NCBI RefSeq assembly: GCF_003790525.1
Contig: NZ_CP033635.1
Strand: one strand, 5' to 3'
DNA: 64,000 nt
Source: Escherichia coli
GTDB taxonomy: Bacteria; Pseudomonadota; Gammaproteobacteria; Enterobacterales; Enterobacteriaceae
Both the position numbers and the translations under genes were made by a program. The notes under the pieces were generated by a model. It worked only from the letters and a program-made list of their open reading frames with translations. It was not told the DNA's origin and did no database searches. This document shows positions 26,084 through 54,816 of the stretch, one piece after another; the stretch's first letter is position 1, and every line of letters begins with the position of its first letter.

Positions 26084-26766
<683 letters not shown>

Positions 26767-37710: not shown

Positions 37711-38484
37711 ATGATAAAACGGACGTTATTAGCGGCGGCCATTTTTAGCACATTGCCCGCTTATGCCGGGTTAACTTCCATTACCGCGGGCTACGATTTT
37801 ACCGATTATTCTGGCGATCATGGCAATCGTAATTTAGCGTATGCTGAACTGGTGGCGAAAGTTGAAAACGCAACGCTGCTTTTTAATCTTTCCCAGGGGC
37901 GTCGTGATTATGAAACTGAACATTTCAATGCCACTCGCGGTCAGGGTGCGGTCTGGTATAAATGGAATAACTGGCTGACAACCCGAACGGGTATTGCCTT
38001 TGCGGATAATACGCCGGTCTTTGCCCGCCAGGATTTTCGTCAGGATATTAACCTGGCACTGTTGCCAAAAACGCTTTTCACGACCGGTTATCGCTACACT
38101 AAATATTACGATGATGTCGAAGTCGATGCCTGGCAAGGCGGCGTATCCCTCTATACTGGCCCGGTGATCTCCAGCTACCGCTATACCCATTATGACTCCA
38201 GCGATGCAGGTGGTAGTTACAGCAATATGATTTCCGTGCGTCTGAATGACCCGCGCGGCACTGGTTATACGCAACTATGGCTAAGCCGCGGAACAGGCGC
38301 TTACACCTATGACTGGACGCCAGAAACACGCTACGGCAGCATGAAGAGCGTCAGTCTGCAACGTATTCAACCGCTGACTGAGCAACTTAATCTCGGGCTG
38401 ACGGCAGGTAAAGTGTGGTACGACACCCCAACCGATGATTATAACGGTCTGCAACTTGCAGCCCATCTGACCTGGAAATTCTGA
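37711..38484 (+). CDS. yaiO: Outer-membrane beta-barrel protein YaiO
   Basis: 257-aa ORF with signal peptide (MIKRTLLAAAIFSTLPAYA), alternating aromatic/hydrophilic beta-strand pattern, C-terminal ...LTWKF. Confidence 0.85.
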   Translation: MIKRTLLAAAIFSTLPAYAGLTSITAGYDFTDYSGDHGNRNLAYAELVAKVENATLLFNLSQGRRDYETEHFNATRGQGAVWYKWNNWLTTRTGIAFADNTPVFARQDFRQDINLALLPKTLFTTGYRYTKYYDDVEVDAWQGGVSLYTGPVISSYRYTHYDSSDAGGSYSNMISVRLNDPRGTGYTQLWLSRGTGAYTYDWTPETRYGSMKSVSLQRIQPLTEQLNLGLTAGKVWYDTPTDDYNGLQLAAHLTWKF

Positions 38485-38593
38485 TTGCTTCTGCCGCCCG
38501 CTATCCGGGGCGGCCTTCCCTGTCGATTAGGCCCCTCTTTCCTTTTTGTTATCCGACTACATTCACCGGATAAATTTTATTCTCCAGTGTTAT

Positions 38594-38642
38594 ATACTAT
38601 AGGGGGGTATGCATTGACATATAGCATACCCCCCTATAGTAT
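38594..38642 (+). promoter_or_regulatory. Candidate FrmR operator overlapping the frmRAB promoter
   Basis: Perfect 19-bp inverted repeat atactataggggggtatgc (38594-38612) / gcatacccccctatagtat (38624-38642) separated by 11 bp containing TTGACA (38615-38620); G6/C6 tracts as in RcnR/FrmR-family sites. Confidence 0.7.
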
Positions 38643-38668
38643 ATTGCGTGCAGATGATGAGGTGCGAA

Positions 38669-38944
38669 ATGCCCAGTACTCCGGAAGAGAAGAAAAAGGT
38701 CCTTACTCGAGTTCGTCGTATTCGGGGGCAAATTGATGCTCTGGAACGGTCGCTGGAGGGTGATGCCGAATGCCGTGCCATACTCCAACAGATCGCTGCC
38801 GTTCGGGGCGCGGCTAACGGGCTGATGGCAGAAGTGCTTGAAAGCCATATCCGGGAAACGTTTGACCGAAATGACTGCTACAGCCGCGAAGTCAGCCAAT
38901 CCGTTGACGACACTATTGAACTGGTTCGTGCCTATCTTAAATAG
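38669..38944 (+). CDS. frmR: Formaldehyde-responsive repressor FrmR (CsoR/RcnR family)
   Basis: ORF 38648-38944; start placed at [27 protein letters not shown]... (91 aa). Confidence 0.9.
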
Positions 38945-38948
38945 CTGA

Positions 38949-40088
<1,140 letters not shown>

Positions 40089-40179: not shown

Positions 40180-41013
40180 ATGGAACTCATTGAAAAACAT
40201 GCCAGCTTTGGCGGCTGGCAAAATGTGTATCGGCATTATTCCCAATCACTGAAATGTGAAATGAATGTCGGCGTCTATCTCCCACCAAAAGCCGGGAATG
40301 AAAAATTACCGGTGCTGTACTGGCTTTCGGGCCTGACCTGCAACGAGCAGAATTTCATTACTAAATCGGGGATGCAGCGTTACGCGGCTGAGCACAACAT
40401 TATTGTTGTTGCGCCGGACACCAGTCCGCGAGGCAGTCATGTCGCAGATGCCGACCGTTACGATCTCGGGCAAGGTGCCGGGTTTTACCTGAACGCAACG
40501 CAAGCGCCGTGGAATGAACATTACAAAATGTATGATTATATCCACAACGAGCTGCCGGATTTAGTGATGCAACATTTTCCGGCAACGACCAGAAAGTCTA
40601 TCTCAGGTCATTCTATGGGCGGACTGGGCGCGCTGGTGCTGGCGTTACGTAATCCAGATGAATATGTCAGCGTCTCGGCATTTTCGCCCATTGTCTCCCC
40701 ATCGCAAGTACCGTGGGGACAGCAAGCCTTTGCCGCATATCTTGGTGAAAATAAAGAGGCCTGGTTGGATTACGATCCGGTGAGCCTTATTTCACAAGGT
40801 CAACGCGTTGCGGAAATCATGGTTGATCAGGGGTTGAGTGATGATTTTTACGCAGAACAGCTGCGGACTCCAAATCTTGAAAAGATCTGCCAGGAGATGA
40901 ATATCAAGACGTTAATCCGTTATCACGAGGGTTATGATCACAGCTATTATTTTGTCTCCAGTTTTATTGGCGAGCATATTGCGTACCACGCCAATAAACT
41001 GAATATGCGTTAA
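40180..41013 (+). CDS. frmB: S-formylglutathione hydrolase (esterase D family)
   Basis: 277-aa ORF with GHSMGG serine-hydrolase motif. Confidence 0.93.
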   Translation: MELIEKHASFGGWQNVYRHYSQSLKCEMNVGVYLPPKAGNEKLPVLYWLSGLTCNEQNFITKSGMQRYAAEHNIIVVAPDTSPRGSHVADADRYDLGQGAGFYLNATQAPWNEHYKMYDYIHNELPDLVMQHFPATTRKSISGHSMGGLGALVLALRNPDEYVSVSAFSPIVSPSQVPWGQQAFAAYLGENKEAWLDYDPVSLISQGQRVAEIMVDQGLSDDFYAEQLRTPNLEKICQEMNIKTLIRYHEGYDHSYYFVSSFIGEHIAYHANKLNMR

Positions 41014-51632: not shown

Positions 51633-51653
51633 AATGTGAGTCAGCTCACTCAT
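51632..51653 (+). promoter_or_regulatory. CAP (CRP) binding site of the lac promoter
   Basis: taatgtgagtcagctcactcat; TGTGA-N6-TCACT half-sites present. Confidence 0.85.
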
Positions 51654-51667
51654 TAGGCACCCCAGGC

Positions 51668-51697
51668 TTTACACTCTATGCGTCCGGCTCGTATGTT
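51668..51697 (+). promoter_or_regulatory. lac promoter (-35 tttaca, 18-bp spacer, -10 tatgtt)
   Basis: tttaca at 51668-51673 and tatgtt at 51692-51697. Confidence 0.9.
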
Positions 51698-51703
51698 GTG
51701 TGA

Positions 51704-54816
<3,113 letters not shown>

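Follow-up and report, generated by a model that had tools for sequence, protein, structure and literature searches.

Does the long inverted repeat in the frmR promoter of Escherichia coli function as the operator of FrmR, the formaldehyde-responsive repressor, or does its symmetry reflect a nucleic-acid structure, a mobile element or the binding sites of another regulator? This question was addressed in a window (the whole stretch of DNA that was analysed) of 64 kb, for which an earlier note had proposed a G/C-tract operator in the style of the CsoR/RcnR/FrmR family, through which FrmR occludes its own promoter. Published work on this promoter (PMC5146963), the identity of one site with that of Salmonella and a comparison of 80 frmR loci all supported this proposal. 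The palindrome is, very probably, the operator-promoter of the frmRAB formaldehyde-detoxification operon, with two type I FrmR sites and autorepression relieved by formaldehyde. The E. coli Pfrm palindrome is real and functional, and is already published and experimentally characterised; the anatomy of the repeat and its sites, their uniqueness in the window and the phylogenetic footprint were established in this analysis.

Anatomy of the inverted repeat and the frmRAB promoter

The following features were assigned around the repeat:

38592..38644, no strand: whole 53-bp palindrome, with 21-nt perfect arms and an 11-nt spacer
38594..38610, no strand: distal site S1, ATAC-TATAGGGGG-GTAT, type I with a G6 tract, just upstream of the -35 hexamer
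38614..38619, + strand: -35 hexamer TTGACA, within the spacer, in the gap between S1 and S2
38626..38642, no strand: proximal site S2, ATAC-CCCCCTATA-GTAT, with a C6 tract, covering the promoter spacer and the -10 hexamer
38635..38640, + strand: alternative -10 hexamer TATAGT (15-nt spacer), also inside S2
38637..38642, + strand: -10 hexamer TAGTAT (17-nt spacer), inside the right arm and S2
38647..38649, + strand: approximate transcription start, predicted
38659..38662, + strand: Shine-Dalgarno sequence GAGG, 6 nt before the frmR ATG, assigned from the sequence
38669..38944, + strand: frmR, formaldehyde-responsive repressor of 91 aa, with Pro2, Cys35 and His60
38979..40088, + strand: frmA, S-(hydroxymethyl)glutathione dehydrogenase (TIGR02818)
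40180..41013, + strand: frmB (annotated fghA), S-formylglutathione hydrolase (TIGR02821)

Using a repeat finder, two arms of 21 nt with 100% complementarity were detected at 38592-38612 (ATATACTATAGGGGGGTATGC) and 38624-38644 (GCATACCCCCCTATAGTATAT), separated by an 11-nt spacer (ATTGACATATA) and containing the G6 (38602-38607) and C6 (38629-38634) tracts, respectively; the dyad axis is located at 38618, inside the -35 hexamer. The earlier note had described 19-nt arms (38594-38612 and 38624-38642) around the same 11-nt spacer: these coordinates were exact and the 19-nt symmetry stood, although not as its full extent, since perfect pairing continues for 2 nt outward on each side. Among perfect inverted repeats in the 64-kb window with spacers of up to 30 nt, the palindrome ranked first, and the runners-up had 13-nt arms; when the window was simulated 60 times with a first-order Markov model, the maximum arm length was 9-13 nt, against 21 nt in the real sequence. 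The symmetry is, therefore, genuine and far exceeds what chance would produce.

Two other 13-nt perfect inverted repeats may be described here. One is found at 26725-26754 (TAATGCCCGTCAA-atcc-TTGACGGGCATTA). The other (TGTGTGAAATTGT...ACAATTTCACACA, 51697-51731) surrounds lac O1 in the lac promoter/O1 region (51640-51765) just upstream of lacZ, where 6 of the 126 positions differ from the K-12 derivative J53: a G to A change at 51703 lengthens the symmetry flanking the operator, and the other differences are in the promoter and Shine-Dalgarno region (GGAAACAG to GGATACAG). This lac allele (51660-51745) is rare, with at least 99% identity in 41 of 5282 E. coli records.

The -35 and -10 hexamers (TTGACA-17-TAGTAT) agreed with the sigma-70 consensus at 10 of 12 positions and were the sole sigma-70-like match in 38300-39100; TTGACA in the spacer and a -10-like TAGTAT in the right arm were both found where they had been claimed. 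In the sigma-70 genomic SELEX data (Shimada 2014; PMC3946193), the frmR promoter is given as TTGACA-15-TATAGT, which shares the -35 hexamer and places the -10 hexamer 2 nt upstream of TAGTAT. S1 ends 3 nt before the -35 hexamer, and S2 spans the promoter spacer together with the -10 hexamer. The right arm ends 25 nt upstream of frmR, whose annotated ATG is at 38669; the open reading frame listed by the program starts at a different codon (GTG, 38648). The product belongs to PF02583, scored 189 bits with the NCBIfam equivalog NF008464 (cut-off, 133), and matched the crystallised EcFrmR sequence (PDB 5LBM) over its full length (residues 1-91); its translation (MPSTP...AEC35R) contains the formaldehyde-sensing Pro2 and Cys35, and also His60. 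The window is chromosomal DNA of E. coli. A 221-nt query around the repeat had matches in 5415 of 5426 complete E. coli genomes, with yaiO and frmR as the annotations, and the gene order in one fully matching genome was yaiP, an acetyltransferase gene, yaiO, frmR, frmA, fghA (frmB) and yaiL.

Each arm contains one 17-bp site: S1 (38594-38610) is ATACTATAGGGGGGTAT and S2 (38626-38642) is ATACCCCCCTATAGTAT. They are inverted, bracket the -35 hexamer and have centres 32 bp apart, corresponding to ~3.05 turns of B-DNA. The pattern ATAC-N9-GTAT had two matches in the 64-kb window, one per arm, and no further FrmR site of this pattern was found there. The sequence and location expected of a type I operator of the CsoR/RcnR family were present: a G/C tract within the range of 3-8 bp (G6 and C6), ATAC...GTAT on both sides of each tract, and a location in the promoter of an operon encoding a PF02583 repressor. 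As for a FrmR operator, exact ATAC-N9-GTAT upstream of a frmR orthologue occurred in two copies. As a refinement of the proposal, the recognised unit is the 17-bp site inside each arm rather than the whole 19-21-nt arm or the 53-bp palindrome; the latter is produced by two near-consensus sites that face each other head to head.

Characterised operators and the footprint across frmR loci

Others have demonstrated that FrmR binds to the promoter fragment, is released by formaldehyde and represses in vitro and in vivo, that the sites can be transplanted, and that a flank is needed in Salmonella. In the description of E. coli Pfrm by Denby 2016 (Sci Rep 6:38879; PMC5146963), tandem type I ATAC-N9-GTAT sites make up a large inverted repeat with its centre at -29. 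In that study, the Kd of FrmR for a Pfrm PCR fragment was ~220 nM (~3600 nM for an unrelated control promoter), the complex was dissociated by formaldehyde, in vitro transcription of frmRAB was blocked by FrmR unless it was treated with formaldehyde, and one FrmR tetramer was modelled per E. coli site (PMC5146963). According to Herring and Blattner 2004, as cited in another paper, Pfrm is no longer repressed when frmR is deleted. ATACN9GTAT sites transplanted into the constitutive promoter J23100 made it repressible by FrmR, and truncation of Pfrm just upstream of the FrmR sites abolished repression in one study (PMC11127321), suggesting that the two sites alone may not suffice in the native context. 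With the Salmonella frmRAPro probe, two FrmR tetramers were bound with a KDNA of ~1e-7 M, and no binding of FrmR was detected after mutation of the left flank including ATAC (Osman 2015, 2016; PMC4528141, PMC5016687). The stoichiometry, thus, differs between sources (two tetramers on the single Salmonella site, and one per E. coli site in the model). In the FrmR literature surveyed, the binding and transcription assays on E. coli Pfrm used PCR fragments, and no base-resolution footprint of E. coli FrmR on Pfrm was found.

The earlier note had suggested a comparison with published FrmR operators; the window matched the description of Pfrm, and S2 was identical to the Salmonella site. Pfrm of E. 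coli K-12 (Denby 2016) is the same element at the same locus, with identical 17-bp cores, -35 and -10 hexamers. It differs in the length of the perfect arms, which is 21 nt in the window and only 19 nt in K-12 because of a C to A change at 38625, and at 38648 near the predicted start (G in the window and A in K-12). In Salmonella Typhimurium frmRAPro (probe, TTCTGATAGTATACCCCCCTATAGTATATGGAG), a stretch of 19 nt (ATACCCCCCTATAGTATAT) is identical to 38626-38644, namely the proximal site and its 3' flank. This operator has a C6 tract with T/A-rich flanks, to which FrmR tetramers bind, and formaldehyde weakens the binding. Whereas the Salmonella probe contains a single C tract for two tetramers, E. 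coli adds an inverted site 32 bp upstream, beyond the -35 hexamer.

The operator of the paralogue RcnR, in the rcnR-rcnA intergenic region (Iwig and Chivers 2009; TACT-G6-N-AGTA), resembles the frm sites as tandem type I sites with G/C tracts and short AT-rich inverted-repeat flanks, and the two have in common the outer frame TAC-N8-AGTA and their location in an autoregulated promoter region. They differ in the arrangement: RcnR sites are of 15 bp, with tracts on the same strand and 20 bp apart, whereas frm sites have ATAC/GTAT half-sites and are inverted and 32 bp apart. Furthermore, the tract of the frm sites, unlike that of RcnR, lies off-centre against one half-site, and TATA occupies the opposite side. 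A plasmid rcnR-rcnA region had the same arrangement of TACT-C7-AGTA and TACT-A-C6-AGTA in direct orientation, 20 bp apart. Could the sites then be used mainly by another regulator, such as RcnR, instead of FrmR? The common frame and G/C tract, and a score of 68 bits for FrmR on the RcnR model, are in line with this. However, the RcnR motif TACTGGGGGGNAGTA had no match at 38592-38644 even with 3 mismatches allowed, RcnR operators are 15-bp sites in direct orientation at a distance of 20 bp, and FrmR itself binds and represses Pfrm in published work, in which repression in vivo needs frmR. We consider main use by another regulator extremely improbable, and the sites are regarded below as those of FrmR.

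The mobile or plasmid-borne frmR clade (L008, L010 and L018: an Edwardsiella plasmid, Enterobacter and Morganella) also has two inverted ATAC-N9-GTAT sites flanking TTGAC in a perfect palindrome with arms of 18-21 nt; it differs in the tract (GTGGAG/CTCCAC and not G6/C6), the spacing of the sites (34 bp) and the spacer (17 nt). Genes similar to frmR were present on 1437 plasmid records, including 466 with 90-95% identity to E. coli FrmR.

For a wider comparison, 80 loci with relatives of FrmR (52-100% identity) from Gamma-, Beta- and Alphaproteobacteria were used. Exact ATAC-N9-GTAT was found within 160 nt upstream of the gene in 65 of them, against a background in the rest of the same loci of 5 matches in 366 kb (0.002 per 160 nt). 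A proximal site that ends in TATAGTAT and overlaps the -10 hexamer was nearly universal, and most loci had one site only; in the Brucella and Ochrobactrum-type loci, the proximal site directly abuts TTGAC. The second site upstream of the -35 hexamer occurred in 18 of the 80 loci, mostly in Enterobacterales, Aeromonas and Deefgea, and was inverted in most cases; from the start of one site to that of the other there are 32 bp in Escherichia and, in most of the other genera, 33-35 bp. In Erwinia, both sites were in direct orientation. When 12 distinct two-site promoters from Enterobacterales, Aeromonas and Deefgea were aligned, ATACT, GTAT, TTG, ATAC and TATAGTAT were invariant, and the tracts and the spacer varied. 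Invariance of the half-sites and hexamers gives a phylogenetic footprint of two protein sites and promoter hexamers, not of a stem. Several taxa had a G-rich tract instead of a C-rich one beside TATAGTAT. Judging from these sequences, a G- or C-rich tract on either strand is consistent with the shape readout of the tract that has been proposed for the CsoR/RcnR family (PMC5146963).

Some loci in this set had other characteristics. In Tatumella (L019-L021, L024 and L025), a single C-rich tract is enclosed by the 8-nt flanks ATACTATA and TATAGTAT, so that reading it on both strands gives two overlapping ATAC-N9-GTAT sites sharing one tract; this layout may be related to the two tetramers per site of the Salmonella probe. 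In Lysobacteraceae and Xanthomonadaceae (L034-L036, L053, L056 and L078), ATACTCCCCCCCACT directly abuts the ATG assigned by protein match, which leaves two readings, a true start codon located downstream of this ATG or a leaderless mRNA. One of these loci (L035, a Lysobacter MAG) has a perfect inverted repeat (GGTGGAGTAAGCGCAGCGCAACTCCACC...) ~160 nt before its frmR homologue; this 28-nt repeat encloses a 25-nt spacer and is not related in sequence to the FrmR motif.

Pairing potential, strain-level symmetry and the upstream flank

A palindrome of this length may also act as a hairpin, either as a structured RNA element or by limiting read-through from yaiO as an intrinsic terminator or attenuator. 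Indeed, folding of the single strand gives a stem of 21 bp (-21.5 kcal/mol; z = -7.3), and the palindrome is located 107 nt downstream of the yaiO stop codon. On the other hand, the stem is followed by TGCGTGC and not by a T run, a terminator scan of 38300-39100 was empty, and the loop would be 11 nt and hold the consensus -35 hexamer. No match in the window reached the gathering level of Rfam 15; at this locus, the only models with E <= 1 were those of eukaryotic miRNA hairpins, with 20-27 bits against gathering values of 73-139. Conservation across loci is found on the ATAC/GTAT half-sites and promoter hexamers and not on the pairing: the arms differ by up to 4 mismatches across promoters, and the stem is, therefore, not preserved, the direct orientation of the sites in Erwinia allows no hairpin, and most frmR loci have only one site. 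A functional hairpin is, thus, highly implausible compared with FrmR sites.

A separate G+C-rich stem without a T run (GCCGCCC...GGGCGGC) was observed at 38493-38514, just after the yaiO stop codon. Its fold was not significantly better than those of shuffled sequences (z = -1.8), and we rejected it as a terminator.

The perfection of the palindrome varied among strains. Of 5135 matching records, 3554 carry the 53-mer of the window unchanged, which makes it the majority allele of E. coli. At the position of GCATAC in the window, K-12 MG1655 has GAATAC (38625 C to A) and O157-type strains have TCATAC (38624 G to T), and one E. coli strain has changes in the distal tract; in E. albertii, the two 17-bp sites differ from each other by one mismatch, and the inner flank carries further changes. 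The two innermost symmetric base pairs are outside the 17-bp sites and free to vary. Since K-12 and O157-type strains each mismatch at one of them, the perfection is a strain-level, allele-specific property. Of the "unusual length and perfection" that had been pointed out for this repeat, the length held, being the longest in the window, and the perfection held for the window but varies even among E. coli strains. The 17-bp cores, on the other hand, are constant in E. coli, where the flank upstream of them and even the identity of the gene beyond it vary.

The occurrence of a perfect palindrome with different tracts in the mobile clade prompted a test of co-variation between the arms. Among 9 unique inverted two-site promoters, S1 and the reverse complement of S2 differed on average by 1.67 mismatches within promoters and 2.11 between promoters, giving a permutation p of ~0.07 on lineages that are not independent. 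Concerted evolution of the arms was not adopted as an explanation, since this value on non-independent lineages is not convincing.

The gene upstream of frmR is yaiO in the window and K-12, and fbpC in strains ERL06-2497 and PA11. Between the yaiO and fbpC strains, the sequence is unrelated until ~25 nt before the palindrome and is then conserved, corresponding to an additional feature:

38566..38591, no strand: conserved upstream flank, kept in strains with a different upstream gene

This flank may serve as wrapping or UP-like DNA.

Upstream of the palindrome, E. coli has a recombination boundary, and the neighbouring gene is either yaiO or fbpC. Together with the unusual length and perfection of the palindrome and the frequency of frmR-like genes on plasmids, this would fit a DNA-structural or mobile-element feature (a cruciform sensing supercoiling, a recombination site or a relic of terminal inverted repeats) that overlaps the promoter incidentally. 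However, across 5134 E. coli genomes the median number of places with this sequence was 1, so that it is not a repeat family of the dispersed REP or MITE type. In three proteobacterial classes, the 17-bp motif accompanies frmR, in most cases as one copy, from which no cruciform can form, and the perfect symmetry is lost at the innermost bases in K-12 and O157-type strains. An 11-nt spacer would, in general, also disfavour cruciform extrusion. There is very little chance that such a feature accounts for the palindrome, and we return to the two FrmR sites.

Autorepression by FrmR and its meaning

In the absence of formaldehyde, tetrameric FrmR would be present on the sites and block sigma-70 RNA polymerase, by which the operon including frmR itself would stay repressed. 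Formaldehyde forms methylene bridges between Pro2 and Cys35 of FrmR subunits, and the cross-linked FrmR leaves the DNA, which allows the transcription of frmR, frmA and frmB. With frmR as the first gene of the operon, this is a negatively autoregulated circuit. In this model, we infer that each site takes one tetramer, that bound FrmR excludes RNA polymerase sterically, and where exactly transcription starts.

Alternatively, the two inverted sites and the ~25-nt flank may form one cooperative, wrapped FrmR complex of 2-4 tetramers over the -35 hexamer, similar to that of RcnR, in which case the symmetry of the arms would perhaps be maintained; selection or homogenisation by template switching might be responsible for this, instead of two independent sites. 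The two tetramers on the Salmonella site, the loss of repression by truncation and the perfect palindromes in two clades with different tracts are compatible with such a complex, whereas the weak co-variation of the arms (p ~0.07) and the natural E. coli alleles breaking the innermost symmetry count against it. We consider this arrangement rather unlikely, although less remote than the hairpin, the mobile element or another regulator.

Pfrm with its two FrmR sites is a textbook-level control element of formaldehyde detoxification in E. coli, and already serves as a sensing part in biosensors for formaldehyde and methylglyoxal and in synthetic methylotrophy; the present result, therefore, carries little weight as a discovery. 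Its added value is modest: the footprint across classes, the G/C tract on either strand and the allele-specific perfection of the palindrome. According to the cross-class footprint, the proximal site overlapping the -10 hexamer is the ancestral, near-universal element of frmR promoters, and the second inverted site an add-on.
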